Shown: one piece after another, positions 820 to 56,138 of the stretch | Layout of the letters: every line of letters starts with the position of its first letter | How positions within the stretch are numbered: position 1 is the stretch's first letter | NCBI GenBank assembly: GCA_944391495.1 | Contig: CALXTU010000004.1 | Coordinates: 5,041-69,040 of the forward strand | DNA: 64,000 nt | Direction of reading: 5' to 3' | DNA from: an uncultured Alphaproteobacteria bacterium | GTDB lineage: Bacteria; Pseudomonadota; Alphaproteobacteria; RF32; CAG-239 | Position numbers and translations under genes: made by a program | The notes under the pieces: generated by a model | Databases searched by the model: none | The model's input: the letters and a program-made list of their open reading frames with translations, nothing else | What the model was told of the DNA's origin: nothing

Positions 820-1215
820 ATGAACATTATTGAAAACATTGAAAAAGAGCAGATGGAAAAGTTGCTCGAAGGCAAAAATCTTCCCAACTTTAAACCCGGC
901 GATACTCTTAGAGTTCATACCAAAGTAAAAGAGGGTGACAGAGAACGTATCCAGGTTTATGAGGGTGTTTGCATTGCGCGTAAAAACGATGGTTTGAACT
1001 CTTCTTTCACCGTCCGCAAAATTTCTTTCGGCGAGGGTGTAGAAAGAGTATTCCCGCTGTATTCGCCGAATGTTGCGAAGATTGAGGTTTCGCGTATTGG
1101 TAAAGTACGTCGTGCCAAATTGTACTTCCTGCGTGCTTTGCGCGGTCGTTCGGCTCGTATTGCCGACGATTTGTCCGCAACGGCTAAGGCTAAAGACGAA
1201 GAAAAAAGCGAATAA
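820..1215 (+). CDS. rplS: 50S ribosomal protein L19
   Basis: The [11 protein letters not shown]...RVHTKVKEG... sequence is L19. An AAGGG ribosome-binding site precedes ATG 820. Confidence 0.9.
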
Positions 1216-1246
1216 TTTGCAAATAAGGCATTTGCCGAACTAAAAA

Positions 1247-1273
1247 AGCGGGTTCTGTGCACCCGCTTTTTTA
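1247..1273 (+). terminator. Rho-independent terminator after rplS
   Basis: agcgggt-tctgtgc-acccgct hairpin followed by a T-tract. Confidence 0.6.
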
Positions 1274-1348
1274 GTACAATTTGAATCAACCAAAGGTTTG
1301 ATTTTAAGATTAAGACAAAATAAAGTTGTTGATAAACCGGAGCCGGTC

Positions 1349-1378
1349 TTGACTTTAGTTCGATTTTCGTTCTATGAA
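1349..1378 (+). promoter_or_regulatory. Candidate sigma70-type promoter for toxin cassette A
   Basis: TTGACT, an 18-nt spacer, then TATGAA, about 55 bp upstream of ATG 1432. Confidence 0.3.
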
Positions 1379-1392
1379 TATAAGCGGGGAAT

Positions 1393-1717
1393 AATTTTGT
1401 CCTCTTTTTAGAACAGAAAGGAATATCAAGGATGATAGGGGAAAAAACAACATTCCGGCAACAGCTGGAAAAATTACAAAGAGCGGGCGAGGAAAAGAGG
1501 CTTAAAGCATTGCAGGCCAAATATCCGAACCCGAATAATATTGATTACGGCAATATGAGCCTGCGCGACGAGTTGCAAACACGTTTTGATTTAGACGAGA
1601 TGAACAATCTCTCAACCAAGCTCGGCGCACCGAGCGGTTTGGCGGTCGGCAATGATAACGGCGCGCCGGTTCAAGACTTGAGCCAACGCCTGTCCGGCAA
1701 CGATACAGAGGCACAAA
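1393..1717. repeat. Repeat Z copy 1, covering the 5' leader and conserved toxin N-terminal domain
   Basis: Near-identical to 2628-2950. The first 33 codons are identical and the next ~60 codons are similar. Confidence 0.8.
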
Positions 1718-2214
1718 ACAGCTTTTATAAGCCTTTATCCAGACCAAATAAAGATAATGCCAATTGTTATATGACATTTGATGGACAAAGTTTAAATCTT
1801 GTAGGCGGCAATCCAACACATCAATACACATTAAATGCGATGTCCGGAAATCCTGATTATCAGGCCAGACAATATCAGTCAAAAAAGTATTTGGGTCCGA
1901 TACCGGAAGGAACATATTATGCCGCGCAAAATCAAAGACAAATAATTGATCCGATAAATGCCGCAGCAGGCATTATAAATGAAGGAAATTGGCGTAAATC
2001 TATCCCCGCATGGGGATTAAGACGAGTTTGGCTGCAGCCAGACATAAACACAAATACTTATGGTCGAAGTGGCTTTTCAATTCACGGAGGTTGGAAAAAA
2101 GGATCGGCAGGTTGCATAGATATTCCATGGCAAACCGGAAAGCTTAGTCGGTATTTAGATGATTGTCAGGATAACGTTCCGGTTTATGTAAAATATACCA
2201 AGGAGAAATGGTGA
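1432..2214 (+). CDS. Polymorphic toxin A: conserved N-terminal domain plus Tlde1/DUF2778-like C-terminal domain
   Basis: Residues 1-95 are shared with the ORF at 2665. The C-terminus carries GPIPEGTYY and GFSIHGGWKKGSAGCID, a His-x10-Cys arrangement like the LD-transpeptidase-fold effector Tlde1. AAGGA ribosome-binding site. Confidence 0.6.
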   Translation: MIGEKTTFRQQLEKLQRAGEEKRLKALQAKYPNPNNIDYGNMSLRDELQTRFDLDEMNNLSTKLGAPSGLAVGNDNGAPVQDLSQRLSGNDTEAQNSFYKPLSRPNKDNANCYMTFDGQSLNLVGGNPTHQYTLNAMSGNPDYQARQYQSKKYLGPIPEGTYYAAQNQRQIIDPINAAAGIINEGNWRKSIPAWGLRRVWLQPDINTNTYGRSGFSIHGGWKKGSAGCIDIPWQTGKLSRYLDDCQDNVPVYVKYTKEKW

Positions 2215-2564
2215 TGAACAAAGCCAAAGTGTATGAAAGGTTGCAGAAAATAAAAACATTTATCAAGCTTTTCAAGTGGTATATCTGTTTTTATATTTTA
2301 TACTTTTTGATATTAGTAAAAGAATATTTTTATCCGCCGGCCAAAGACGATCAAATTTGGGGTGCCCAAGAAACGATGAGCGATTGGAATTACCAGAATC
2401 AAGAGTTGTATCTTGAGTCAATAAAAATAGATATTGGAATTTCAATTTTAATTTTTTTGTTGGCGCTTAGCAATATGCAAAACTATCCGCGAATAGCCAA
2501 ACTGATTTTGCTATATCCATGGTTTATGGCACTATGGAATATAATTGAGTATGAATATATGTAA
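2214..2564 (+). CDS. Putative immunity protein A (N-terminal TM helix), translationally coupled to toxin A
   Basis: ATG 2214 overlaps the toxin stop (TGATG), 8 nt after AGGAG. It is a predicted membrane protein whose last ~29 codons lie inside repeat X. Confidence 0.5.
   Translation: MNKAKVYERLQKIKTFIKLFKWYICFYILYFLILVKEYFYPPAKDDQIWGAQETMSDWNYQNQELYLESIKIDIGISILIFLLALSNMQNYPRIAKLILLYPWFMALWNIIEYEYM
2472..2558. repeat. Repeat X copy 1
   Basis: 87 bp, ~95% identical to 4308-4396. Confidence 0.8.
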
Positions 2565-2574
2565 ATTAATAATC

Positions 2575-2633
2575 ATCCAGGCGGTAACATAAAATAAAAA
2601 CATATTTTGCAAAACAACCATAGATTTAATTTT
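2575..2633. repeat. Repeat Y copy 1
   Basis: 59 bp, similar to 3908-3966 (atccRRgcggtaacataaaat...agatttaatttt). Confidence 0.75.
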
Positions 2634-2950
2634 CCGTTTTTTAGAACAGAAAGGAATATCAAGGATGATAGGGGAAAAAACAACATTCCGGCAACAGCTG
2701 GAAAAATTACAAAGAGCGGGCGAGGAAAAGAGGCTTAAAGCATTGCAGGCCAAATATCCGAACCCTGATAATATTGACTACGGCAATATGAGCCTGCGCA
2801 ATGAATTGCAGACGCGCTTTGATCTGAACGAGATGAACAACCTATCCGCCAAACTCGGCACATCAAACGGTTTTACTGTTGGTAATGATAACAGCGCACC
2901 GGTTCAAGACTTGAGCCAACGCCTGTCCGGCAATGACAAAGGAACACAAA
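2628..2950. repeat. Repeat Z copy 2
   Basis: See copy 1. Confidence 0.8.
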
Positions 2951-3324
2951 ACGGTTTTTATGCTGCTCTCGGCAAACCGACGCCAAATTACATTCCGAAA
3001 AGCCATATCCTGGAAATAGCTGGTGCCGGCCTGCAAGGTTTCGGTAAAGGAATTGAAAGTGGAATGTTAACGGCGGTTAATGGTGCGACAAACGACTACT
3101 ATAATAAATTAAGTTCAAAATATTTAGGGGATTATTATAACAAGAATCAACGTCAAATTCAGCGGCAAGCGGAGGCGGCAGGCTTAGGTCAAGCCAACCA
3201 GATAGCTAATGATGTCATAGAATACGGTGCAAGTGCCTGGGCAGATACCAAAACCGCCGGTCTTTTATCAAGTAATTTATTTAATCAACCATGGGCGACA
3301 AATTGGTTGAAGAAGTTAAAATAA
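2665..3324 (+). CDS. Polymorphic toxin B: same N-terminal domain, Gly/Asn/Tyr-rich glycine-zipper-like C-terminus
   Basis: The N-terminal ~95 aa are near-identical to toxin A. The C-terminus (AGAGLQGFGKGIESG...) is unrelated to toxin A. Confidence 0.55.
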   Translation: MIGEKTTFRQQLEKLQRAGEEKRLKALQAKYPNPDNIDYGNMSLRNELQTRFDLNEMNNLSAKLGTSNGFTVGNDNSAPVQDLSQRLSGNDKGTQNGFYAALGKPTPNYIPKSHILEIAGAGLQGFGKGIESGMLTAVNGATNDYYNKLSSKYLGDYYNKNQRQIQRQAEAAGLGQANQIANDVIEYGASAWADTKTAGLLSSNLFNQPWATNWLKKLK

Positions 3325-3391
3325 TTTAGTAAACAAATAAGAGGCAGATATTGATTAACGATGTCTGCCTCAACAAATAAAGGAAACACTA

Positions 3392-3925
3392 ATGCCCTAT
3401 CCAGATAAACAAGCAATATTCAGCCGCATAAAAGAACTTTTGTTGCACTATGTTTTTTCATTCAAGGGTTTTGCAAACGGCTTGCAATTTGGTATAGCCA
3501 CTTCAATAGCATTTATATCTAATGATATTTTAAGCAAGTTGGATGTTTCTTTAACAATACGCAATTTTATTTATGGCTATATAATGCTGGTCGCATTTCA
3601 AAAAAGATGTCGGGATATCAACATCAAAGGGACATTAATAATAATTTTTATAACACTTGCTTTCTTTTATGTGGCAATATTTGAAGCACTTAAGCTTGAT
3701 ATGTATGGTTATTTGGATACAATATCAAAATTTTTCCTTCACGCATATGCATTTCTTGTTCTGACCATGATGATTTTACCATCATCACAAATCAAAAATG
3801 CCGAATTGACCAGCCCGTTGTTAAAATACCCGTATTTATACGTGTTAGTGTGTATTGGCATATGCCTTTGGGGTATATCCGTGGTATCAGAACATCAAGA
3901 TGAAATTATCCGAGCGGTAACATAA
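3392..3925 (+). CDS. Putative immunity protein B (polytopic membrane protein)
   Basis: 177 aa with 4-5 hydrophobic helices and an AAAGGA ribosome-binding site. It lies directly downstream of toxin B, and its 3' end runs into repeat Y. Confidence 0.45.
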   Translation: MPYPDKQAIFSRIKELLLHYVFSFKGFANGLQFGIATSIAFISNDILSKLDVSLTIRNFIYGYIMLVAFQKRCRDINIKGTLIIIFITLAFFYVAIFEALKLDMYGYLDTISKFFLHAYAFLVLTMMILPSSQIKNAELTSPLLKYPYLYVLVCIGICLWGISVVSEHQDEIIRAVT

Positions 3926-3966
3926 AATGAAAACATATTTTACGAGGCAACCAAAGATTTAATTTT
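3908..3966. repeat. Repeat Y copy 2
   Basis: See copy 1. Confidence 0.75.
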
Positions 3967-4018
3967 AATAAGTCTAATTCTCGAGACGCTTGTAATTCAT
4001 ATAGAGTTAATGGAATAA

Positions 4019-4294
4019 ATGATAAGTATTAACCCCCAAAAAATAACACAATATCTGCGGAAGGCAATTAAAATGGCAAGCCTTGTTATCGGACTGACCA
4101 TAATAGCCATAATCTGCTATATTATAGGTTATTTGCTAACAGATAAGGAGGGATGGTGTTTAAGTGAAGGACATGGTGTTTGGGATGCCGACAGACAAGA
4201 ATGCAGGCAAGATTGTCTGACTTGGCGTAAAGATATCGGTTGTGTTCCGATAACTGAAGAGAATATCAGAAAAAAAGAAAAAGGATTATTATAA
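4019..4294 (+). CDS. Small TM plus 4-Cys protein (possible orphan immunity protein)
   Basis: 91 aa with one TM helix and a Cys-rich tail. It sits between repeat Y copy 2 and repeat X copy 2. Confidence 0.3.
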   Translation: MISINPQKITQYLRKAIKMASLVIGLTIIAIICYIIGYLLTDKEGWCLSEGHGVWDADRQECRQDCLTWRKDIGCVPITEENIRKKEKGLL

Positions 4295-4307
4295 AGCCCG
4301 ATAGTAT

Positions 4308-4396
4308 AATATGCAAAACTATCCGCGATTGGCCAAACTGATTTTGCTATATCCATGGTTTATGGCGCTATGGAATATAATTGAGTATGAATATTT
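4308..4396. repeat. Repeat X copy 2 (terminal copy next to hisS)
   Basis: See copy 1. Confidence 0.8.
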
Positions 4397-4432
4397 GCGA
4401 AAGCAGAATGTTAACGGCAGGAAAGGGGCAAA

Positions 4433-5743
4433 TCAGTTTAACAGAACCTCGGCCAGCGCGGCGGCATCAAGGCTTTTTTGCTCTCCGGATGCCATATCTT
4501 TGAGGCTGTAAAGCTTGGTCTTGGCTTCCTCTTCGCCGATGATAATCAGATACGGCACGCCGATTTTGTTGGCATATTCCATTTTCTTTTTGAACTTGCA
4601 TTGCCGATACATAACGTCAACCGGAATATTCTTTTGCCGCAGTTTGCCGGCCAGGCTGACGGCCTCATCGGTGAAAGCGGCGTCTTGCGTGATAATCAGC
4701 GCCTTGTCGGGCGTCAGAACCTTAATTGGCAGCAGATTATTGGCGCGCAACTGGTCAAACAACCGTGTCAGGCCGATAGATATGCCGACGCCGGGAAATT
4801 TCTTGTCCATAAACACCGAAGACAAATTATCATAGCGGCCGCCGGAACAAACCGAGCCGAACTGCGGATATTCGTCAAAAAAGGTCTCATAAACCGTGCC
4901 GGTATAATAGTCCAACCCGCGGGTGATACTCAGATCAATCTGCATATTAGTCGCCGGCAGTCCGAGGTTTTGCGCCTGCGAAACAACCGTCTTGAGCTCG
5001 TTCAGGCCTTCGGCAAACACACCGTCTTTAATGTCAAAACCTTCAAGTTTTGCTATAATTTGCTCGTTTGAACCGTTGATTTTGATAAAATCAAGCAATC
5101 TTTGCCGTTGCGCTTCTTCCAGTCCCAAATCATTGAGCTCGCCCAAAAAGGCCTCTTCGGGAATTTTTTTGATTTTATCAACCAGCCGCAAGACGTCGAC
5201 CGTTTTGTCGGCAATGCCGAGATATTCCAAAAAGCCGCTCAAAAGCTTACGGTTGTTGATATAGATTTTAAAAGCCGGCAGCTCCAGCTTGCTGAATACC
5301 GTATAAATCACCGCCAGAACTTCCGCGTCATAAATAATATTCAGCTCGTCGCGGTCGATAATGTCGATATCGCATTGATAAAATTCGCGGAACCGGCCTT
5401 TTTGCGGGCGTTCGCCGCGGTATACCTTGCCGATTTGATAACGTTTGAACGGAAAGGTCAGTTCATTGTTATAGAGCGCGACATATTTGGCCAGCGGCAC
5501 CGTCAGGTCAAAACGCATGGCAATATCGGTGTCACCTTTTTTAAACTCGTAAATTTGTTTTTCCGTCTCGCCGCCGGATTTTGAGAGCAAAACTTCCGCC
5601 AGCTCCAACACCGGCGTATCAAGCGGCGCAAATCCGAATAATTCGTAAGTATGGGCAATGACGGCTTTCATGTGATTAAAAACAAGTTGCTCCTGCGGCA
5701 AAAGTTCCATAAACCCCTGTAACGTACGTGCGGTCATTGTCAT
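4433..5743 (-). CDS. hisS: Histidine--tRNA ligase
   Basis: Class II aaRS motifs are present. The start is taken at the internal Met (MTMTARTLQGF) after GGAGA; the longer ORF upstream has no similarity. Confidence 0.9.
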   Translation of the reverse strand: MTMTARTLQGFMELLPQEQLVFNHMKAVIAHTYELFGFAPLDTPVLELAEVLLSKSGGETEKQIYEFKKGDTDIAMRFDLTVPLAKYVALYNNELTFPFKRYQIGKVYRGERPQKGRFREFYQCDIDIIDRDELNIIYDAEVLAVIYTVFSKLELPAFKIYINNRKLLSGFLEYLGIADKTVDVLRLVDKIKKIPEEAFLGELNDLGLEEAQRQRLLDFIKINGSNEQIIAKLEGFDIKDGVFAEGLNELKTVVSQAQNLGLPATNMQIDLSITRGLDYYTGTVYETFFDEYPQFGSVCSGGRYDNLSSVFMDKKFPGVGISIGLTRLFDQLRANNLLPIKVLTPDKALIITQDAAFTDEAVSLAGKLRQKNIPVDVMYRQCKFKKKMEYANKIGVPYLIIIGEEEAKTKLYSLKDMASGEQKSLDAAALAEVLLN

Positions 5744-5879
5744 ATCTCCGTTAAAATTAAATTCAGACAAACTTAAAATTACAGCCATTTTAACACTTCT
5801 GTCAAGCAGCTTATGCCGAAACTTTAAGTTTTTAAAACAAAAAACTCCCCGGCCTTTCACAAGACGGGGAGAAAAATTT

Positions 5880-7169
5880 TTATTTTTTTCCGTGATATTT
5901 CATTTGCGGCGCCAGATAGGCACAGGGACCGAACAGCAGAGCAGTGTATTGCTTCTGGTTCAGATTGTTTCTGCCGCCCCAGAGAAGTATGGCTTGTTTG
6001 TTTCCGCTGCGCATGAGCTTGATGATATGTGCATCATCATAAAAGCCCTCCGCGGCAAATATCTCGGCCCAGGCAGGGTTTTCCAGCGACATATCCTGAA
6101 CTTTGCCGCCGATTTTTTTGCCGTTGATTTTAATACATTTCAGCAACCCTGCGACATCATTTCTCGGTCCTTGTTCTGCCAGAGGTTTGAACCACTTAGC
6201 CTGAGCATTCTCTTCCATAATGTCAAAGAGTCGTTGTTGCAGTTCCGGTGCCGCCAAATCATACAAGGTTAAAGGCAGTTTGTCTTCTTTGGCCAGATTA
6301 AGCAGCGTTTCCGGCCGGCAAAGCTTGTCCGAGAGTCTGACGGAAATCTCCTTCGGCAAAGCGGTCAGAAGTTGATCTGCTGCTGCTCGATGCCGGTCGT
6401 TGATTAATCGTTCAATCAACCGTTCGACAAGGTCGTATTGCCGGAGCCTCAGCCAGTAATTGGCCATTTTATTGGCAACGGCCAAAGAGTCGGCATCGTC
6501 AGCCCAGACGTTAAAGTCAGGAAGCTGCACCAGCTGTTCTGCCGGTATGTTCGGCCGGTAAGTCTTGTTTTTGAAAAGCAGGGACATTGCCGCTGCAGCT
6601 GTTTTCTGCAGATCGCCGGTAGCAAATAAGGCGTCTTGCCTTAATATTTTGTCCAGACCTTGCAGGATATCAACGCTGTAACCGACAACCAGCCGGCCGA
6701 ACAGCATCGTTCTGGCTTCTCCGCTCAGTCTTGCGACGGTTTTGTCATAGAAGCTTCCCGATTGTTTCTTAAGCAGTACGGGAACCCACTTTTTGTCGCT
6801 GTTGCAGACATGGACAATCTCGTCGTTTGACAGCGTGTAGCCTTTACTGGCAACGGCTCTGTCTTGTGCCGTCTCATTGTTAAAAGCAGCATAAAATTCC
6901 TCGCTGTTGCGGATTTCGTCAACAAACAGCTCCCAGAGTTTCTCGTCTTTCAGGCATTTTAGCCTGGTTGCCGGCCGCCAGAGGTGTTCAGCCATCCGGC
7001 GGAAGCGGTAATTTGGTGTCTTGCTGAGGATTTTCATCTCTCTTTTGTGGGAGAGAAGAAAATACGAGGCATAAAAGTTGCCTTTTTTTGTGTGACGTAA
7101 GGCCCATGCCGGAAATAATTTAACAACCGGAGCGACGGCTGAAACAGCCATTGTTTTAATTGAATACAT
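5880..7169 (-). CDS. Hypothetical protein (429 aa)
   Basis: Long ORF with native-looking codon usage. No recognisable domain. Confidence 0.45.
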   Translation of the reverse strand: MYSIKTMAVSAVAPVVKLFPAWALRHTKKGNFYASYFLLSHKREMKILSKTPNYRFRRMAEHLWRPATRLKCLKDEKLWELFVDEIRNSEEFYAAFNNETAQDRAVASKGYTLSNDEIVHVCNSDKKWVPVLLKKQSGSFYDKTVARLSGEARTMLFGRLVVGYSVDILQGLDKILRQDALFATGDLQKTAAAAMSLLFKNKTYRPNIPAEQLVQLPDFNVWADDADSLAVANKMANYWLRLRQYDLVERLIERLINDRHRAAADQLLTALPKEISVRLSDKLCRPETLLNLAKEDKLPLTLYDLAAPELQQRLFDIMEENAQAKWFKPLAEQGPRNDVAGLLKCIKINGKKIGGKVQDMSLENPAWAEIFAAEGFYDDAHIIKLMRSGNKQAILLWGGRNNLNQKQYTALLFGPCAYLAPQMKYHGKK

Positions 7170-8472: not shown

Positions 8473-10901
8473 TGAAAAAATGGCTTGCGTTTTTGTTATG
8501 TTTTCTGCTGGCATCACCGTTATGTCTGGCGGCATCGTCCCGGCTTGATGACCTGGGCAACGATTTAAGTTACAGCAGGATATCGTCCCGCCTCGGGAAA
8601 ATAGAAAAGCTGACGCAGGCCGAAAAGCCGGATATTGACGCCATGGTCGACGAGTTGTCGTATCTGAACGAAACCGCCGCCGCACTTGATACCAGCCGCC
8701 GGAGCACCTCCGAAGCCATCGCCCGTACGGAAAAGCGGATTGAGGCTTTGGGCGAAGTCAACGATGATTTGCCCGAGGCAAGGGTTATTTCGCAAAAACG
8801 CCGGGAATATAACCAAGAGCTTGCTGATGAAAAAGCCCGCCTGTCCGAGATAGAAATATTGACGGCCAAAATAGATGAAATAAGTTTGAAAATTTTTGAT
8901 ATCCGCAACCAGGAGCTTTGGGGTAATCTGCTCAATTCCGAAGGCGCGTTGATTAATCCGGGTGTGTTCTGGCGGGCCGGCAGCGAGTTGGTCGCGTTCG
9001 GAATGGATATCGTCAAGTCGCCGTTTGTCCGTTATGCCGAACTGACGGCAGACCAGAAAGTATCTCTGCGCAACAATATTATCCTGATGGTTGTGGTCAT
9101 CACCTTTATCAGTCTGCTCGGTCTTTGGCTGCGGCGTTTTGTCATTCGCCGTTGGGGATATCGCGTTGATATCGAGGCGCCGCGTCTGGGGCGTAAAATC
9201 ATAGCCGCTTTTGCCGTCTGGTGTGCCTACGGCATCATTCCGACGGCCATCATCGGGTTCTGCCTTTACTGGATTTTAACCGCCGGTATTTTAAGCAGCG
9301 GCTTTTTCGGCGTGGTTTTGTCAAGCGCATTGTATTATCTGCTCTATATCATCATCGGCCGGGCCACCTGTCGGGTTGTCTTTACGCCGTATAATGAAAA
9401 ATGGCGTCTGATTAATATGCCGACTGACAAAGCCCGCAGGTTAACCAGAGTTATTTACCTGACCATCGCTCTGGTCGGTATCATGGCATTCCTGCAGCAT
9501 ATTGTCGCGGTCGGCAAATATTCGCTGGAGCTTTTGTCTTGCCTGCTGGCCATATCCTCCGTGATTAAGGCATTTTGCGTGGTATGGATTGCGCATATTT
9601 ACTTTGCGCCGCTTTCGACCGAGCTTGAGGAAGATGACGACAACGGCACTGAAGATACCGAGGAAGACGAGAAAGAAGGCAGGGCTTTCCGTATCGGAAT
9701 GTTAATCAGCCTTTTTGCACTGGGTATTATCGGGCTGTCGATGTTCGGCTATCCGCGTCTGGCATCGTTTATTATCAACAATTCGATTTTGTCGGCGATT
9801 GTTATAGCGGTGTTCAGCATTTTGCGCCGGTTGATATACGATGTCGTTCAGCATGTTTTGCTGATGGGGCTTTGGGTCAAAACTTTCCGGATGCGCCGGC
9901 GCTTTTTGCGCAAGCTTGATTTTTGGTTTGGTATTATCGCCGAACCCGTATTGATATTGCTGCTGCTCGGTGCTTTGTTGCTGTTGTGGGGTGTACCGTT
10001 TGACGTGCTTAAAGGGGCGGTTTATAAAGCCGTTTCTGGTTTTATGGTCGGCGGAATTGAAATCTCGCTGATATCCATTTTCTGGGGCGTTGTGATTTTT
10101 GTCCTCTGCTTATGGATTATCAGATTCGTACGCTACCGCATTGAGTTCCGGCTCCTGGAAAAAACCAATATCGACGCCGGCACCAAACATTCGCTGGCCT
10201 CAGGCTTTGCCTATATTGCCTATGTCCTGGCGGGTATCCTGTCCATCGCCGTTATGGGCGGCAACTTAACCAACATTGCCCTGATTGCCGGTGCGTTGTC
10301 GGTTGGTGTCGGCTTGGGCTTGCAGGATATCGTCAACAACTTCATGTCGGGTATCGTTATGCTGTTTGAGCGCCCGATTAAAGTCGGCGACTGGGTTGTC
10401 ATCAACGGCGAGGAAGGCAAGGTAAAGCAGATTAACATTCGCTCGACCGAGGTTGAAACCTTTAACCGCCACAGCGTCATTATTCCGAACTCGACGGTTC
10501 TGTCCAATTCGGTGACCAACCTGACGCACGAAAACAACTGGGTTCGCTATTCGGTCAAAGTCGGCGTTGCTTACGGTACCGATGTCGAAAAGGTTAAAAA
10601 CATTTTGTTGGAATGTGCCGCTTCACACCCCAAAGTATCCAAAAAGCAGGCTCCCTATGTTTTGTTCCAGGATTTCGGCGAGAGCAGTCTTGATTTTGAG
10701 CTGCGCTTTTACGTCACCGATATCTGGAACGGCTGGACGGCGCCGAGTGATGTCCGCTATACAATCAACCGCCGGTTTATTGAAGAAGGCATAGAAATAC
10801 CGTTCCGCCAGATGGTTATCCACCACGGTAGTTCGGTTGCCGTTGAAACCGACAGTCAGTTCTATGCCAGAAAAGGAGCTAAGAAAAAAAATGCTGATTA
10901 A
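8472..10901 (+). CDS. MscS-family mechanosensitive channel (MscK/KefA-like) with signal peptide
   Basis: The C-terminal MscS core is present (GLGLQDIVNNFMSGIVMLFERPIKVGDWV). It has a large N-terminal periplasmic/coiled-coil domain, and the start overlaps the previous stop. Confidence 0.8.
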   Translation: MKKWLAFLLCFLLASPLCLAASSRLDDLGNDLSYSRISSRLGKIEKLTQAEKPDIDAMVDELSYLNETAAALDTSRRSTSEAIARTEKRIEALGEVNDDLPEARVISQKRREYNQELADEKARLSEIEILTAKIDEISLKIFDIRNQELWGNLLNSEGALINPGVFWRAGSELVAFGMDIVKSPFVRYAELTADQKVSLRNNIILMVVVITFISLLGLWLRRFVIRRWGYRVDIEAPRLGRKIIAAFAVWCAYGIIPTAIIGFCLYWILTAGILSSGFFGVVLSSALYYLLYIIIGRATCRVVFTPYNEKWRLINMPTDKARRLTRVIYLTIALVGIMAFLQHIVAVGKYSLELLSCLLAISSVIKAFCVVWIAHIYFAPLSTELEEDDDNGTEDTEEDEKEGRAFRIGMLISLFALGIIGLSMFGYPRLASFIINNSILSAIVIAVFSILRRLIYDVVQHVLLMGLWVKTFRMRRRFLRKLDFWFGIIAEPVLILLLLGALLLLWGVPFDVLKGAVYKAVSGFMVGGIEISLISIFWGVVIFVLCLWIIRFVRYRIEFRLLEKTNIDAGTKHSLASGFAYIAYVLAGILSIAVMGGNLTNIALIAGALSVGVGLGLQDIVNNFMSGIVMLFERPIKVGDWVVINGEEGKVKQINIRSTEVETFNRHSVIIPNSTVLSNSVTNLTHENNWVRYSVKVGVAYGTDVEKVKNILLECAASHPKVSKKQAPYVLFQDFGESSLDFELRFYVTDIWNGWTAPSDVRYTINRRFIEEGIEIPFRQMVIHHGSSVAVETDSQFYARKGAKKKNAD

Positions 10902-12392: not shown

Positions 12393-13019
12393 GTGAAAAA
12401 GAGGGAAATAATGGTTTTAGAAAATAAGTTAAATATCACCAATCAATTAGAGTTGAATAAAATAGAAGAAAAGCTTAGTAAAGAAAAAGCTAAAAAACTT
12501 TTTGACAGTGGTAAAATAAATACTCTTAGAGTCGGTACTTTTGCCGGATTGAAGCAGATTCACAAATTTTTATTTGAAGATATTTATGATTTTGCCGGAA
12601 AAATACGGACTGTTAATCTTTCTAAAGGAAATTTTAGATTTGCGCCGGTTATGTACTTAGAGCAAGCCTTAAAACATATAGATAAAATGCCCCAATCAAC
12701 CTTTGATGAAATTGTTGAAAAATATGTTGAAATGAATATAGCTCATCCTTTTAGAGAAGGAAATGGTCGCGCTACCCGAATTTGGCTGGATTTAATCTTC
12801 AAAAAAGAACTAAAAATGGTGGTTGATTGGAATAAAATTGATAAATCCGACTATCTGTCCGCTATGGAAAGAAGCCCAATTAAAGATATTGAAATAAAAC
12901 ATCTCTTAAAAAATGCCCTTACTGATAGAATTAATGAAAGAGAAGTATTCATGAAAGGAATTGATGTTAGTTATTATTACGAAGGCTATGATGAATACGA
13001 CATCCATAAGCTGATGTAA
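12393..13019 (+). CDS. fic: Fic/Doc family protein (AMPylator-type)
   Basis: Canonical HPFREGNGR Fic motif. Size and layout resemble E. coli Fic. An alternative start exists at 12411. Confidence 0.85.
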
Positions 13020-13059: not shown

Positions 13060-13412
13060 GCTTTTGAGTAAGAAAATTGAAAATTGTATGCGATGATTGG
13101 CTTACCTTGAGGATATATATTTCTTTTTATCTCTTTTGAATTTTTATAAATTATTTCTTGTAACAAAGTTCCATCAGGCCTGTAACCTCGACTAATGCCA
13201 TCCATTTTGCCGTTTTTATACTGAGCCTCCAAAAGAACTTTTCCATTCGGATAATAGACATACACAATACCATTTATAGGTTCTTTATTAACATTATAGC
13301 GTATTCCATCTATTAGTTTTGTATTTTCCATAGTATACCTATCTTGAGCTAAACAATTACAGCTCAAGATAGATATAAAAAAAATGATTTTCAAAATATT
13401 ATTCATCTTCAA
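13056..13412 (-). CDS. YwqK-family (MORN-variant repeat) secreted protein, immunity-like
   Basis: Signal peptide followed by repeated YxNGK...G..Y units (YYPNGKVLLEAQYKNGKMDG...). Confidence 0.55.
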   Translation of the reverse strand: MKMNNILKIIFFISILSCNCLAQDRYTMENTKLIDGIRYNVNKEPINGIVYVYYPNGKVLLEAQYKNGKMDGISRGYRPDGTLLQEIIYKNSKEIKRNIYPQGKPIIAYNFQFSYSKA

Positions 13413-14337
13413 CTAAATGTTTACATTTTTTCCATTCTTTATGAATATTATCATAAAAATACCAGTTTTCTTTAACATTTTCTGCATATCCTAAAATGTC
13501 AGTACTGGCAGCATTGATACTAGGATAGCTTTTGCCGTTTTTGGGGCAAATGATTTTATCTCCTTCTTTTTTTAATTCGTAGATATTTCCTTTTTGATTA
13601 CCCCTTTTCATACTTCTTTTAATAATGGTCCCTTCGGGAATTTTTTTAGTATCAATTTGACCTTTATATGTTCTGAATATCGGAGAAACAAACTCGGAAA
13701 TAACATCTTTATTATCAGTTTTAAGCTCAGGAGTATTTTCAAATTTTTTAGCATCAAAATTGAAATCTATAGGTGTTTGTAACAAATTCTCATATTTTTC
13801 GGAGAATGTGACACCATCTTGAATATAGTGTATTAAATCAATTAAATTATTAAGATCTGTTCTATATGGAAGTATTAAAGAGTCTTCATATCCATTTGAT
13901 TCTCGAGTTTCTAATTCTGTAGATATAAAATCCCTACATACATTTAATATATTATAAACTTTTTGAATCTCTTTGATTGTTCTTGCAAGTTTTGGATTTG
14001 TTGTTGTTGCTAATAATTCATATTCTCCATTTTCTAAAGCAGAATAAATTTCATAAGTATCTTGTTTTTTTACAATAATATTAGATTGAGGAATGTTATT
14101 ATATGTTTGTATTAAATCAAGCATCAATTGGCAAGCTAATGCTTGTTTTCCTAATTTTGATATATCGGTTCTTCCTGATAGCCAATTATTTGCGGTAGAT
14201 TCGGAAACATCTAATAAATTAGAAATTTCTTCAGCATCACTATGTTTGTTTAAGTCAAAATTATCAACATCAATAGCTTTATTTTTTGCTATTTCTTTTA
14301 AAAATTTTTCAGCTTCATAATATGTAAAGTTTTTCAT
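13399..14337 (-). CDS. HTH (XRE-like) domain protein with unknown C-terminal domain
   Basis: A helix-turn-helix at about residues 30-65. The 3' end overlaps the ywqK-like gene. Confidence 0.45.
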   Translation of the reverse strand: MKNFTYYEAEKFLKEIAKNKAIDVDNFDLNKHSDAEEISNLLDVSESTANNWLSGRTDISKLGKQALACQLMLDLIQTYNNIPQSNIIVKKQDTYEIYSALENGEYELLATTTNPKLARTIKEIQKVYNILNVCRDFISTELETRESNGYEDSLILPYRTDLNNLIDLIHYIQDGVTFSEKYENLLQTPIDFNFDAKKFENTPELKTDNKDVISEFVSPIFRTYKGQIDTKKIPEGTIIKRSMKRGNQKGNIYELKKEGDKIICPKNGKSYPSINAASTDILGYAENVKENWYFYDNIHKEWKKCKHLVEDE

Positions 14338-15589: not shown

Positions 15590-16387
15590 ATGAAATTTAG
15601 AACTATGTTGCTTGCTTCTGCAGCAGTTATGTTTACTTCTTCCGCTTTTGCGGCGGATATTACCAATCCGTTCTTCCTGCCGACACAGGGCAAATTCCTG
15701 TCCGACACATCTGTAGAGTTCTCTCGTGTTAAATGGGAAGGCGAAGACGGCGGTGCTTCTAAAGATTTGTATGCCAATGAGAGATTGTCTTTTGGTTTGA
15801 CCGATAATTTGGCTGTATTTGCTAGCATTGGTAATACTTTTGATTATGATAAGAGTGAAACTTTGAACAACGACCACAACTTCGATTATGAGTTGGGTGT
15901 TGCTTATAACCACAACTTTGGCAAAGTTTTGACTCAGGTTGGTGCTTCTTATTGGACATATGATCCGCAGAGCTGGTATGGACAGAATTACAGCGATGAT
16001 GAGATGGGCGACCGTTGGGAAAAAGAAATCAACGCTCACGTAATGTTGGGTTATGCGATGGATTGCGGTTTCACGCCGTACACCTCTTTCTCGGTTAATG
16101 CCGATATTGACAGAGACAACAACGAGCAGAGATATGCTTGGTTTGTCGGCGCTCACAAAGCCTGGAGCAAAGCTTCGGTTGACGGCGGTTTCCGTTATGA
16201 ATTCGGTGACGAAGAGGAAGATAGAGGCGACGGCCACAACGAGGATCTGTACCTCCAGTTGGCGGCTAACTACTTCGTAACCGACAACTTCACCGTTGGT
16301 GTATATGGCGACTACAATTTGATGCCTGAAGACAAAGATACAAAATATGACTACACCATTGGTTTGAATGCCAAAGTATTGTTCTAA
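15590..16387 (+). CDS. Outer-membrane beta-barrel protein (porin/surface antigen-like)
   Basis: Signal peptide, alternating amphipathic strands rich in Y/G/D/N, and a C-terminal Phe. Confidence 0.65.
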   Translation: MKFRTMLLASAAVMFTSSAFAADITNPFFLPTQGKFLSDTSVEFSRVKWEGEDGGASKDLYANERLSFGLTDNLAVFASIGNTFDYDKSETLNNDHNFDYELGVAYNHNFGKVLTQVGASYWTYDPQSWYGQNYSDDEMGDRWEKEINAHVMLGYAMDCGFTPYTSFSVNADIDRDNNEQRYAWFVGAHKAWSKASVDGGFRYEFGDEEEDRGDGHNEDLYLQLAANYFVTDNFTVGVYGDYNLMPEDKDTKYDYTIGLNAKVLF

Positions 16388-54515: not shown

Positions 54516-56138
54516 ATGGATCATAAACAATTTCTTCTGGATGAATACAAAAGAGAACGTCAAGAACCGGCATATTTCTCTTTGCCGGACGGGGAGAGTG
54601 TGCTTATGCCCTGCGTCTACCACGGCGATAAAGACGCATTTGTTGATGACTGGCTGTCTTTTCAGAATGAAGAACTGCAGAAATATGATACTCACAATGC
54701 CGCCAACCCGGACAATCCCATAGAAATTCCCGAGCCGTTGAAATATGACGACCTTTATATTTTCCCGCCGTTAAAAGGAGTCCTTAAAAACTGGTCGGAG
54801 CAAAAGATTATCAACAAAGCACTGCGCACGGCCATGCGTAAATACAAAGCGGCAATAAAACAGACGGCGCAAGTTGCCAAAATATATCCGAAAGATGATT
54901 TTATTACCAGTCTGAACAAGGATGCCGTTTCCAGATTAAAAAAACTGCATAACGACTATAAAAAAGAAAAATTAAAACAAAACCTGGCCAGGACTTTCAA
55001 ATTCACGGCTAAACAAACGGCCAATATTCTGGCCGGTGCAACCGGAGCTCTGCCGGCCGCCGCATATTATCTGTTGGATAAAAAAGTGCGCTTTGCCAAA
55101 AGCAAAACCAAGAGTTTTATTGATAATACAGCTTTGCCGTATATTCGCAGAGGTGTTGCAAAGTTCCTGGTCTTGGTATGTCTTACGGGAGCAGTCAACT
55201 TAACGTCTGTCATCAAAGAAAAGCATCAGGACAAAATTGAGCAGCAAATGCTTCAAGCCCGTGAGCAAGCTGAAAAAGAAGCCTTTTTTGCCAAATATCA
55301 AACCACTAACGAGGCCTTTTATAAAAATTATAAACAGGCCAAAAACTTAGAGCAGGAATTTATCTGTCTGTTGTCCTGTTATGAAGATTATCATGAACAG
55401 GCTTATAAATGCCAGGCCGGCAAATGGACCGTCGGCTACGGATCACGGCAGTTGGCTGATGGTACGCCTGTTGTTAAAGGAACCACCGTCACCCGGAAAG
55501 ACGCCGCGGCGGCCGTTACCAAGCATATGGAAAAATACGTCTATCCTCAGCTTTGTCATATTAATAAAGAACTTTCGCCGGAACAGCTGATGGCTGTCAA
55601 TATGTTTATCTACAACACGGACGAAAACGCTTTCCGAAATTCAAAAGTCTGCCGTGCCATTAACGACAATGCCGATGAAACCAAAATGCGGGAGGCCTTT
55701 TCTTACTATCGCAGCGTTAACGGCAAGCGCAGTTACGGTCTGATCAACCGTCGCGGTTTTGAAGGCTATTTATGGAGCTGCGGCAATCTGGCCGATGTTT
55801 TGCTGATGAGCCCCAATCTGGCCGGCAGTCAGGATATCCGCTATTTCGAATATCCAGATACCGATAGTCGCAATCCGCATGAAAATCCGGACGAAACTTT
55901 TGTCGTGCGGCAAAAAGATGAAGTAAAACGGGATTTGAAAAAATTTAAAGTTTCCAATCTTTCGCAGAGCATCTTAGGCAATACCACACCGGAAATTTGT
56001 GATAATTTGTGTGATAAATACGGAATTTATGAAGAAAACAATCAAATCAAACAACTGCAGGTTATCACGGTCGATAATTCTCAAACCGGCAAGGCCATTA
56101 CTTTTGCTCAGGCTCAAAGGTTAAAGGAAAGTCGTTAA
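54516..56138 (+). CDS. Multidomain protein with an internal T4-lysozyme-like (GH24) domain
   Basis: E-x8-C-x5-T spacing (YEDYHEQAYKCQAGKWTVGYGS) and a downstream GH24-like helix (SPEQLMAVNMFIYN). No signal peptide. The N-terminal ~290 aa have no recognisable similarity. Confidence 0.5.
   Translation: MDHKQFLLDEYKRERQEPAYFSLPDGESVLMPCVYHGDKDAFVDDWLSFQNEELQKYDTHNAANPDNPIEIPEPLKYDDLYIFPPLKGVLKNWSEQKIINKALRTAMRKYKAAIKQTAQVAKIYPKDDFITSLNKDAVSRLKKLHNDYKKEKLKQNLARTFKFTAKQTANILAGATGALPAAAYYLLDKKVRFAKSKTKSFIDNTALPYIRRGVAKFLVLVCLTGAVNLTSVIKEKHQDKIEQQMLQAREQAEKEAFFAKYQTTNEAFYKNYKQAKNLEQEFICLLSCYEDYHEQAYKCQAGKWTVGYGSRQLADGTPVVKGTTVTRKDAAAAVTKHMEKYVYPQLCHINKELSPEQLMAVNMFIYNTDENAFRNSKVCRAINDNADETKMREAFSYYRSVNGKRSYGLINRRGFEGYLWSCGNLADVLLMSPNLAGSQDIRYFEYPDTDSRNPHENPDETFVVRQKDEVKRDLKKFKVSNLSQSILGNTTPEICDNLCDKYGIYEENNQIKQLQVITVDNSQTGKAITFAQAQRLKESR

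Follow-up and report, generated by a model that had tools for sequence, protein, structure and literature searches.

A probable polymorphic toxin/immunity array with a shared N-terminal domain between rplS and hisS

Background

Between the housekeeping genes rplS and hisS lies a block of small genes (positions 1397-4397) with a G+C content of 30-45%, against about 50% in its flanks. What is this block for, and how would its products act? Positions refer to the window, that is the whole 64-kb stretch of DNA analysed here, and the elements described are all on its + strand. A preliminary description had read the block as a polymorphic toxin/immunity array, and each element that it listed is in place. 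Our analysis supports this reading, with a constant N-terminus joined to swapped C-termini, immunity genes that track the C-terminus, and orphans and truncations that vary between strains. We consider that the block is in all likelihood a chromosomal polymorphic toxin/immunity island, most probably serving antagonism among closely related strains of an uncultured alphaproteobacterium.

Results

The upstream edge of the island is the rplS terminator hairpin (1239-1275), whose 15-nt arms pair perfectly around a 7-nt loop and precede a T-run. Five genes are intact in the window: toxA (1432-2214, 260 aa), immA (2214-2564, 116 aa), toxB (2665-3324, 219 aa), immB (3392-3925, 177 aa) and immD (4019-4294, 91 aa). 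In a crude hydropathy scan, ImmA, ImmB and the 91-aa ORF showed transmembrane segments, whereas ToxA and ToxB did not; each toxin lacks a signal peptide. As previously described, a membrane-protein gene follows each toxin gene within about 70 bp. The toxA stop codon (TGA, 2212-2214) overlaps the immA start codon (ATG, 2214-2216) as TGATG, with AGGAGA located 7 nt upstream of this ATG, and immB starts 67 nt past the toxB stop. The immA start at 2214 agrees with the public contig calls; the start given by the ORF lister (2208) yields 118 aa.

The two toxin genes begin within a 300-nt direct repeat (1397-1696 and 2630-2929, 90% identity), which opens with a leader carrying the ribosome-binding site (1397-1431 and 2630-2664). 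Over the 27 nt before the ATG and the first 101 nt of coding sequence (33 codons), toxA and toxB do not differ at all. Beyond this stretch the identity decays and is gone near codon 100, in agreement with the shared leader and ~95 shared codons, the first 33 identical, noted before. By BLASTP, no real similarity between ToxA and ToxB extends past about residue 105, so that their C-termini are indeed unrelated.

The shared part encodes a 65-residue two-helix N-terminal domain, N1, with the core motif NMSLRDELQTRFDLDE (residues 1-66 of ToxA, nt 1432-1629). Family searches (Pfam, NCBIfam, PHROG) gave no match to known trafficking domains, and N1 is a new, previously undescribed domain. An exhaustive profile search of 1.84 billion representative proteins returned only 41 N1 clusters. 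Apart from a single deletion fusion, all full-length proteins carry N1 at their N-terminus. The preliminary description had proposed searching other genomes for further fusions of this region; across all databases N1 is joined to about ten different C-termini, four types of which (Tlde1, B, C and SAA) occur in this species. These C-termini include Tlde1, SAA, SAA-like domains, a weak lysozyme-like match and several glycine-rich types, and no nuclease was recognised among those matching a family. Where assignable, the C-terminal killing domains are predicted to act in the cell envelope. N1 is followed by a disordered linker with many Gly, Asn, Ser and Gln residues, which is nearly missing in some members (P0005). 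Each toxin consists of three modules: N1, which we infer to be a delivery module, the linker and an exchangeable, presumably killing, C-terminal domain.

In ToxA the linker extends to about residue 110 and a Tlde1/DUF2778 domain occupies about residues 111-260. Its Pfam score (PF10908, 34.4 bits) exceeds the gathering cut-off of 30.1, the positive outcome of an HMM search that had been suggested earlier. The AlphaFold2 model (pLDDT about 90 in the C-terminal domain) has its best Foldseek matches in Salmonella Tlde1a (7uo8/7uma, E-value = 4e-8, TM-score 0.6). H218, C228 and the surrounding motif SIHGGWKKGSAGCID are at least 90% conserved among 98 homologues. The His-x9-Cys motif is intact, and the Salmonella residues with the same 10-residue spacing, H121 and C131, are experimentally essential (bioRxiv 10.1101/2020.02.18.954545). 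As judged from sequence and predicted fold, the ToxA C-terminus is a Tlde1-type L,D-transpeptidase-fold peptidoglycan toxin. If it works as Salmonella Tlde1 does, stem peptides of the target's periplasmic peptidoglycan would be trimmed or mis-exchanged. ImmA is predicted to span the membrane three times and fell into no family of Pfam, NCBIfam or PHROG. Its homologues (37-48% identity, E-value = 1e-21 to 1e-33) follow Tlde1 toxins with four other N-termini, which pairs ImmA with the Tlde1 domain as its probable immunity protein.

ToxB carries N1 and linker up to about residue 105, followed by a helical, glycine-rich C-terminus (AGAGLQGFGKGIESG...). This C-terminus is rare: only 4 homologous clusters were found among 5.8 billion proteins, with P0130, P0126 and P0151 as more distant relatives. 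Its AlphaFold2 model contains helices only (pLDDT 45), and such a domain might conceivably perturb the membrane. ImmB is a multi-pass membrane protein in the hydropathy scan. The gene is retained behind truncated toxB in other strains, and an ImmB homologue (32% identity, E-value = 3e-15) follows a B2-type toxin with a different N-terminus. ImmB is thus probably the immunity protein that belongs with the B-type C-terminus.

The third membrane/Cys-rich ORF, previously listed as an orphan, is an orphan indeed, and can now be described as an immunity gene whose SAA-like toxin is absent. ImmD exhibits one transmembrane segment and four cysteines (Cys47, Cys62, Cys66, Cys75). Its gene stands directly behind an intact SAA toxin at a sister-strain locus, L005, where the encoded protein is 92% identical to ImmD of the window. 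At L035, a prophage locus, a homologue likewise comes directly after an intact SAA toxin, with 46% identity across the 52 C-terminal residues (E-value = 1.5e-13). Both relatives retain all four cysteines. The intact toxD of L005 matches the Pfam SAA family (PF00277, E-value = 6.5e-20). When the last 153 residues of this 215-aa protein were used as a tblastn query, its residues 135-153 were found at 3973-4029 of the window with 94.7% identity. ImmD is an orphan because the window retains no more of the toxin gene than these last 19 codons. Sister-strain toxD encodes a true SAA-domain toxin of the prok-SAA Lipocone kind (Burroughs & Aravind, eLife 2025; PMC12419801). That paper describes a four-Cys immunity class for these toxins, and ImmD, membrane-anchored and with four conserved cysteines, fits it. 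Homology identifies ImmD as the immunity protein for an SAA-like (prok-SAA Lipocone) toxin, and its four-Cys domain is probably periplasmic or otherwise extracytoplasmic. None of the trafficking domains PAAR, LXG/WXG, VirD4-binding, T9SS, MuF and cystatin-like, all named in that paper, resembles N1.

The block had also been described as delimited by three reiterated junction sequences. The repeats are real: the 5' leader, a 63-nt unit (2571-2633 and 3904-3966, 86% identity, with its core CAACCAWAGRTTTRATTTT recurring at 1287-1307) and a 90-nt unit (2472-2561 and 4308-4397, 96% identity). However, they are not dedicated junction elements. The leader is the toxin 5' end, and the 63-nt and 90-nt units match the 3' ends of immB and immA, respectively. 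Accordingly 2571-2633 is a scar made of an immB-like 3' end (ending in AVT and a stop codon) and the downstream intergenic junction motif, its counterpart at 3904-3966 being the real immB 3' end, and 4308-4397 is the remnant (last 30 codons) of a second immA. A full-length orphan immA occupies the position of this remnant at three other loci (L038, L043, L047). The first of three copies of the junction motif CAACCAAAGGTTTGATTTTAA lies upstream of toxA (1287-1307), parted from the toxA leader by an 85-nt insert with a candidate promoter (TTGACT-18 nt-TATGAA).

At the same rplS-hisS site, sister strains carry toxC-immC, toxD-immD, truncated toxB, and full-length orphan immA or immC. In some strains toxC-immC stands in place of toxA-immA and toxB is truncated; the orphan immA or immC genes occur in strains without the matching toxin. 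An in-frame deletion of 219 nt has inactivated toxA in one strain. In prophages as well as on chromosomes, homologues of ImmA, ImmB and ImmD follow the same C-terminal domains on unrelated N-termini. By these homologies, the immunity genes track the C-terminal domain and not the N-terminus. Several unrelated N-terminal types draw on one pool of C-termini, even inside a single genome.

Discussion

The Salmonella Typhimurium T6SS pair Tlde1/Tldi1 (Tae5/Tai5) resembles ToxA/ImmA in its PF10908 domain, altered L,D-transpeptidase fold and His-x9-Cys spacing, as well as in the implied periplasmic action and the adjacent immunity gene. However, Salmonella Tlde1 is a single-domain protein (roughly 173 aa) encoded inside a T6SS cluster, whereas ToxA adds 110 residues of N1 and linker and its gene, between rplS and hisS, has no T6SS gene in its observed surroundings. 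The immunity gene is upstream in Salmonella and downstream here; Tldi1 is a periplasmic DUF2195 protein, whereas ImmA has no DUF2195 match and is predicted to cross the membrane three times.

In classical polymorphic loci, such as CDI (cdiA-CT/cdiI), Rhs-CT and Neisseria MafB/MafI, a conserved N-terminal region precedes variable toxin tips, with the immunity gene immediately downstream; displaced C-terminal/immunity orphans gather downstream, and recombination proceeds via the conserved region. The array shares the layout of constant N-terminus, variable tips, downstream immunity and orphans, and probably also the route of recombination. In contrast, its toxins are tiny (about 200-290 aa), without signal peptide, filamentous haemagglutinin repeats, Rhs repeats, PAAR, LXG or DUF1020; their conserved part is only the 65-residue helical hairpin, and both window toxins are full-length with their own N1 copy. 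The T6SS marker domains MIX, FIX and RIX are likewise short N-terminal domains on highly variable C-terminal toxins with downstream immunity, often encoded away from the secretion cluster. N1 is like them in layout but matches no described marker, and its family differs in that no T6SS link was seen and assignable C-termini are restricted to envelope targets. In colicin M, pesticin and pectocin, an N-terminal delivery module is combined with an interchangeable killing domain acting on periplasmic peptidoglycan or lipid II, and immunity is membrane-anchored. The array is similar in its small soluble toxins, N-terminal module, interchangeable C-terminal domains and membrane-anchored immunity, but has no TonB box, known receptor-binding fold (e.g. 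ferredoxin) or release gene, and no sequence relationship of its toxins to these bacteriocins was detected.

How the toxins would reach their targets is a matter of tentative choice. Loading onto a contact-dependent apparatus encoded elsewhere, for which T6SS is the precedent in the case of Tlde1, is possible though somewhat doubtful; a diffusible colicin-M-like or pesticin-like bacteriocin taken up into the target periplasm by means of N1 is rather unlikely, and the rest of the probability falls to some other route. That the toxins are specifically contact-dependent T6SS cargo, with N1 as a loading domain for VgrG, PAAR, Hcp or an adaptor, we hold to be improbable. It is true that experiments have established Tlde1/DUF2778 as a T6SS effector family, which ToxA matches in sequence and fold, that genes for small signal-peptide-less effectors, each with an immunity gene behind it, are frequently found at a distance from the T6SS cluster, and that T6SS has its own N-terminal markers. 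Yet a search for the T6SS link, raised in the preliminary description, came out negative: no secretion-system gene is present in the 64-kb window or among the family-assigned genes flanking the related loci examined, be it Hcp, VgrG, PAAR, Tss, DUF4123, DUF1795 or DUF2169, and no known Pfam marker gave a match to N1. In related genomes, the same Tlde1 and SAA domains occur in prophage-like clusters beside terminase and lysis-type genes. No assignable C-terminus acts in the cytoplasm, and all-envelope C-termini would be unusual for a T6SS marker family. A published survey also locates DUF2778 genes near T1SS, T2SS, T4SS and T5SS genes. These envelope-acting C-termini (Tlde1, SAA, SAA-like, the weak lysozyme-like match) would rather suit modular bacteriocins released by lysis or in vesicles, N1 with or without the linker binding an outer-membrane receptor. 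The glycine-rich helical types may act at the periplasm or membrane as well, the immunity proteins are all small inner-membrane proteins, and the common pool of C-termini recalls the shuffling of receptor and killing domains in colicins and pyocins. The disordered linker is also in keeping with such a design, and N4-type sister toxins adjoin phage lysis-type genes, which could release them. We nevertheless regard a bacteriocin as doubtful: the array is without a lysis or release gene, no TonB or TolB box is recognisable, N1, a short and fairly conserved hairpin of helices, does not look like a typical receptor-binding domain, and the linker is dispensed with almost entirely in some members.

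It is very improbable that the genes serve intracellular conflict (toxin-antitoxin, abortive infection or EAD-linked effector), with N1 as an EAD-like adaptor to an NTPase sensor. Several diverged members do weakly match Pfam EAD7 on the second N1 helix, but with 13-17 bits, about half of the 32-bit gathering cut-off, and while the locus of a second species lies among defence-type genes (HipA, GmrSD, KAP NTPase), no adjacent partner NTPase carries the same domain. Moreover, the assignable C-termini have periplasmic substrates, the partners are membrane proteins, one with a four-Cys domain that is probably extracytoplasmic, and an orphan immunity gene kept without its toxin fits defence against neighbours, not self-regulation. 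Equally improbable is that the block is debris of decaying mobile elements or prophages without present function. Its low G+C content, its scars and truncated genes and the inactivated toxA of one strain would fit, but the five genes are intact and identical across many independent assemblies, the toxA catalytic motif is kept, the array has neither phage nor transposase genes in its flanks, and the scars follow the order expected from cassette displacement.

As a polymorphic toxin/immunity island, the array would change by homologous recombination. Incoming cassettes would pair via the identical leader and N1 coding region and displace resident C-termini, leaving behind truncated toxin tails, immunity scars and intact orphan immunity genes. 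ImmA and ImmB would neutralise an incoming toxin at the periplasmic face of the inner membrane, and ImmD would neutralise an SAA-like lipid-head-group toxin that the strain no longer makes. Leftover immunity genes would provide protection against toxins of rival strains. Exact ImmB is encoded on 67 contigs and exact ImmD on 60, as compared with 17 for ToxA and 16 for ToxB.

Organization of the array

Five intact ORFs, all on the plus strand, lie between rplS (802-1215) and hisS, which occupies 4433-5860 on the minus strand. These are toxA (1432-2214, 260 aa), immA (2214-2564, 116 aa, or 118 aa from the ATG at 2208), toxB (2665-3324, 219 aa), immB (3392-3925, 177 aa) and a 91-aa ORF that we designate immD (4019-4294). 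The block has a G+C content of 30-45%, against about 50% outside. The putative toxins ToxA and ToxB share a 65-residue two-helix N-terminal domain (hereafter N1), continue with a disordered linker and end differently. The common part corresponds to a 300-nt direct repeat of 90% identity beginning 35 nt 5' of the ATG. The two copies are identical over 27 upstream nucleotides and the first 101 coding nucleotides; the identity declines further in and is gone by about codon 100. A preliminary description of this DNA had reported two toxin genes with a common 5' leader and about 95 common codons (the first 33 of them identical), followed by C-termini without relation to each other, and a direct comparison of toxA with toxB agrees. 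It had further placed a membrane-protein gene within about 70 bp downstream of each toxin gene. The toxA stop codon overlaps the immA start in a TGATG at 2212-2216, with an AGGAGA upstream, and immB starts 67 nt past the toxB stop. A crude hydropathy scan gives transmembrane segments in ImmA, ImmB and the 91-aa protein, and none in the toxins. The preliminary description is correct in these respects, since the ORFs, the repeat, the overlap, the unrelated C-termini and the membrane partners are all confirmed.

The block had also been described as delimited by reiterated junction sequences. The repeats are indeed present, but their comparison identifies them as coding remnants of displaced immB and immA genes. 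The segment 2571-2633 is a copy of the 3' end of immB (...AVT*) together with its downstream motif, and at 4308-4397 a second immA survives as its last 30 codons. A further copy of the motif CAACCAWAGRTTTRATTTT is found 5' of toxA. These junctions are scars left by displaced cassettes. An integron or another site-specific cassette array was considered and rejected, as the cassette borders lack inverted repeats, no integrase lies nearby and the reiterated sequences are coding remnants.

The third small gene had been noted as an orphan membrane/Cys-rich ORF. It does encode a transmembrane helix and four cysteines (C47, C62, C66 and C75), and its status can be refined to that of the partner of a toxin, ToxD, reduced to its tail. 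In L005, a locus of a related MAG, its counterpart (92% amino acid identity) lies directly 3' of an intact 215-aa ToxD, in which the first 60 N1 residues are followed by a serum-amyloid-A (SAA) C-terminus (PF00277, E-value = 6.5e-20, 71.9 bits against a cut-off of 30.8). The last 19 codons of toxD are found in the window (3973-4029, plus strand), just 5' of and overlapping immD. A homologue in another related locus, L035 (46% identity across the C-terminal 52 residues, E-value = 1.5e-13), retains all four cysteines and lies 3' of a different SAA toxin within a prophage-like cluster. By Burroughs & Aravind (eLife 2025; PMC12419801), prok-SAA Lipocone domains are described as polymorphic-toxin tips, paired with a membrane-associated immunity domain having four invariant cysteines. 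The window ImmD resembles the immunity class described there in its predicted membrane anchor and its four conserved cysteines. SAA-like toxins beside a four-cysteine immunity protein would provide a natural example of the pairing predicted computationally in 2025.

The same site in related strains

The content of the rplS-hisS site varies among related strains. The window and four other loci (L039, L040, L044 and L046) carry toxA-immA, toxB-immB, the toxD tail with immD, and the immA tail. Three loci (L038, L043 and L047) exhibit a further cassette, toxC-immC, with a truncated toxB C-terminus and immB, the toxD tail with immD, and a full-length orphan immA; L045 has the same array except that immA is reduced to its tail. 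In L041 and L042, toxA-immA and toxB-immB are accompanied by an orphan immC. L004 has toxC-immC and nothing else between rplS and hisS, and L005 has immA, the intact toxD-immD, a toxB remnant with a diverged immB, and an immC fragment. L001 has a window-type array in which 219 nt of the catalytic core of toxA are deleted in frame. An 86-aa fragment of the toxB C-terminus is also present at this site in other strains. Contigs with the exact sequence number 67 for ImmB, 60 for ImmD, 17 for ToxA and 16 for ToxB.

Orphan and displaced modules, together with strain-to-strain cassette variation at one locus, are features by which polymorphic toxins are recognized, and both are found here. At the level of sequence, the locus is established as a putative polymorphic toxin/immunity array whose cassettes diversify as they recombine across the conserved leader and N1 segment. 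It is likewise established that the array retains orphan genes of predicted immunity function against toxins of sister strains. The locus is well suited to the study of cassette gain, displacement and orphan-immunity memory because many metagenomic haplotypes are available.

Some details of L001 may be added. Its segment 10238-10483, compared with window positions 1842-2060, exhibits a toxA without 219 nt (73 codons), most of the Tlde1 core described below being gone; the 5' end of this toxA is also disrupted, and immA is intact. A second toxin array lies at 174-3286 of L001, about 7-9 kb 5' of rplS and outside the window. It carries on the minus strand a 209-aa toxin with another N-terminus (N2) and a C-terminus (B2) distantly related to that of ToxB, with a 172-aa ImmB-like gene. 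On the plus strand, a 295-aa N1 toxin whose C-terminus is of the long glycine-rich type is accompanied by a 108-aa membrane gene.

C-terminal domains of the toxins

The preliminary description had pointed to DUF2778 as a family to be checked, and ToxA residues 134-231 do match this Pfam family (Tlde1_dom/DUF2778, PF10908) with 34.4 bits, the gathering score being 30.1. An AlphaFold2 model built from an alignment of 98 homologues exhibits long helices at residues 2-30 and 44-63, a disordered segment at about 64-110 (pLDDT below 50) and a confidently modelled C-terminal domain (pLDDT about 90). The top Foldseek matches are the crystal structures of Salmonella Tlde1a (7uo8, 7uma and 7uo3; E-value = 4e-8 to 2e-7, probability 1.0), and true L,D-transpeptidases rank below them. 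The predicted fold of the ToxA C-terminal domain is the altered L,D-transpeptidase fold of Tlde1a. His218 and Cys228 sit in the motif SIHGGWKKGSAGCID, and each is at least 90% conserved among the 98 homologues. Their spacing of 10 residues, short as is usual in DUF2778, equals that of H121 and C131 in Salmonella Tlde1, which are needed for its toxicity (bioRxiv 10.1101/2020.02.18.954545). The immunity protein of the Tlde1 family is the periplasmic, DUF2195-type Tldi1, whereas for ImmA a location within the membrane is predicted. No Pfam family, DUF2195 included, matches ImmA at E-value ≤ 1.

The C-terminus of ToxB is helical and glycine-rich. Its AlphaFold2 model, obtained from 8 sequences, is unusable because of its pLDDT of 45. 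Only four homologous clusters were found among 5.8 billion proteins, one of them being the 86-aa fragment, which occurs on 30 contigs. The C-termini of ToxB and ToxC (types B and C) and the long glycine-rich one are without family assignment.

The N1 domain and the pairing of immunity genes

That the shared N-terminal region might be fused to other C-termini, as had been suggested beforehand, is borne out. The N1 profile retrieves only 41 clusters from 1.84 billion representative proteins. N1 is joined to four C-terminal types in the window's species and to about ten across the 41 clusters, including Tlde1, the glycine-rich B and B2, the C-type, SAA and SAA-like domains, the long glycine-rich type and one with a weak lysozyme-like match. 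Those matching a known family are envelope-directed in every case, and no nuclease or other cytoplasm-acting domain was recognized among them. N1 is N-terminal in all full-length proteins except one deletion fusion, P0156. In this protein (387 aa; L022-L031, about 9611-10774), from a second species, a deletion has fused the serine-hydrolase-like gene lying upstream with an N1 toxin whose first ~23 codons are gone; the chimera is present in many assemblies, of which some carry the label human gut metagenome.

In related genomes, the Tlde1 C-terminus also occurs behind unrelated N-termini, of which there are at least four (N2-N5). ImmA homologues (37-48% identity, E-value = 1e-21 to 1e-33) lie 3' of Tlde1 toxins with diverged-N1, N2, N4 and N5 N-termini. 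An ImmD homologue lies 3' of an N4-SAA toxin, and an ImmB homologue 3' of an N2-B2 toxin. The occurrence of ImmA, ImmB and ImmD homologues behind the same domains on unrelated N-termini indicates that the putative immunity genes go with the C-terminal domain.

Two modules with the common N-terminus N4 (MTSLSEQIRGYLLGG...) are found in prophage-like clusters (L035 5871-6744 and 10001-11184; also L036 and L006). One consists of a 204-aa SAA toxin and a 90-aa four-cysteine protein, a few small ORFs 3' of a cell-wall hydrolase gene; the other consists of a 249-aa Tlde1 toxin and a 114-aa ImmA-like protein, directly 3' of the large terminase. The 363-aa Tlde1 toxin with N-terminus N5 is found in L007, where a TraG/VirD4-type coupling protein (4355-6577) lies about 3.5 kb 5' of it, and phage capsid-like and lysozyme genes lie downstream.

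ORF inspection and the hydropathy scan revealed no hydrophobic N-terminus or signal peptide in the toxins, and the known secretion or trafficking modules of polymorphic toxins (signal peptide, PAAR, Rhs, LXG, FHA, MuF and the like) gave no hit above threshold in them. N1 has no match above threshold to known trafficking modules in Pfam, NCBIfam, PHROGs or a PDB profile search. An assignment to EAD7 (PF19960) was rejected, the scores being 13-17 bits against a cut-off of 32, with 26-40 of the 62 profile positions covered. Between N1 and N2 ('GFSTRDELEYQ'), hhalign aligns 15 columns with 12% probability, and only a short SxRDEL motif is common to both. No relatives of N1 or N4 appeared in IMG/VR scans. 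We regard N1 as a candidate new trafficking module.

Delivery route

The lack of a signal peptide in the toxins, combined with the periplasmic substrates of the identified C-termini, implies that immunity is needed against incoming toxin. We infer that the immunity proteins act on incoming toxin and not on the producer's own cytoplasmic pool. Three options lead as to how the toxins are delivered: they may use a T6SS whose genes lie elsewhere, they may be diffusible bacteriocins of the colicin M kind, or they may take a route not yet described. With regard to a T6SS, neither the 64-kb window nor the flanks of the related loci link ToxA to a T6SS cluster, to a vgrG, hcp or PAAR neighbour, or to an Rhs fusion. 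Secretion-system genes of any kind were not found in the window, the rest of which contains housekeeping and envelope genes, including asd, MscS, Mur ligase, Fic, LpxK, KdtA, Lon, glycosyltransferases, fab genes, mfd, recG, DsbD, ApbE and Rnf. In the second N1 species, some contigs of which are labelled human gut metagenome, no T6SS, T4SS or T1SS genes flank the N1 toxins; the neighbours are autotransporter, DUF2130 and Fic genes and the defence-type genes HipA, GmrSD and KAP NTPase. A literature search on secretion systems in RF32-type gut alphaproteobacteria found nothing.

With regard to a diffusible bacteriocin, the N1 alignment exhibits no recognizable TonB/Tol box of the colicin M/pesticin kind, and N1 is a two-helix hairpin in the AlphaFold2 model, with no PDB relative. 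No ORF for lysis or release was found at 1200-4450. By contrast, the sister toxins with N4 (Tlde1 and SAA) lie in prophage-like clusters, next to terminase and cell-wall hydrolase genes; in L035 they adjoin a cell-wall hydrolase and small ORFs. As to the undescribed route, we suggest only tentatively that N1, perhaps with N2-N5, marks a non-T6SS delivery of signal-peptide-less toxins that reaches only the target periplasm. Such a route could involve a new export/loading signal or a new outer-membrane uptake module. Reaching only the periplasm would explain why all assignable C-termini are envelope-directed and why the immunity proteins are membrane-embedded. The delivery route would be the real novelty of this system, if it is true that a T6SS is not used.

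Systems of this kind and the toxin domains Tlde1 and prok-SAA are already known. New are the N1 module, the membrane-type Tlde1 partner ImmA, the toxin tips B and C together with the partners of each, and the well-sampled haplotype series. ImmA represents a new candidate family of membrane-embedded proteins conferring immunity to Tlde1-type enzymes. With its 65 residues, N1 offers a compact handle for finding new envelope-targeting toxins, and the interbacterial warfare genes of uncultured alphaproteobacteria constitute an uncharted arsenal.

Other genes of the window

Beside hisS lies a 429-aa ORF (5880-7169, minus strand) with no Pfam or NCBIfam match. It varies strongly among strains, with called lengths of 423 to 514 aa and a split into 244 and 239 aa in one of them; relative to L001, nucleotide similarity breaks at 6254-6452 and is 85% beyond. 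A stand-alone 208-aa Fic/DOC-domain protein (12393-13019, plus strand, E-value = 2.5e-13) has two ORFs nearby (13399-14337 and 15590-16387) with no family match. A 540-aa protein (54516-56138, plus strand), surrounded by housekeeping genes, has as its sole recognized domain a phage lysozyme (GH24) at residues 289-414; it may be either a cell-wall enzyme or one more toxin directed at the envelope.
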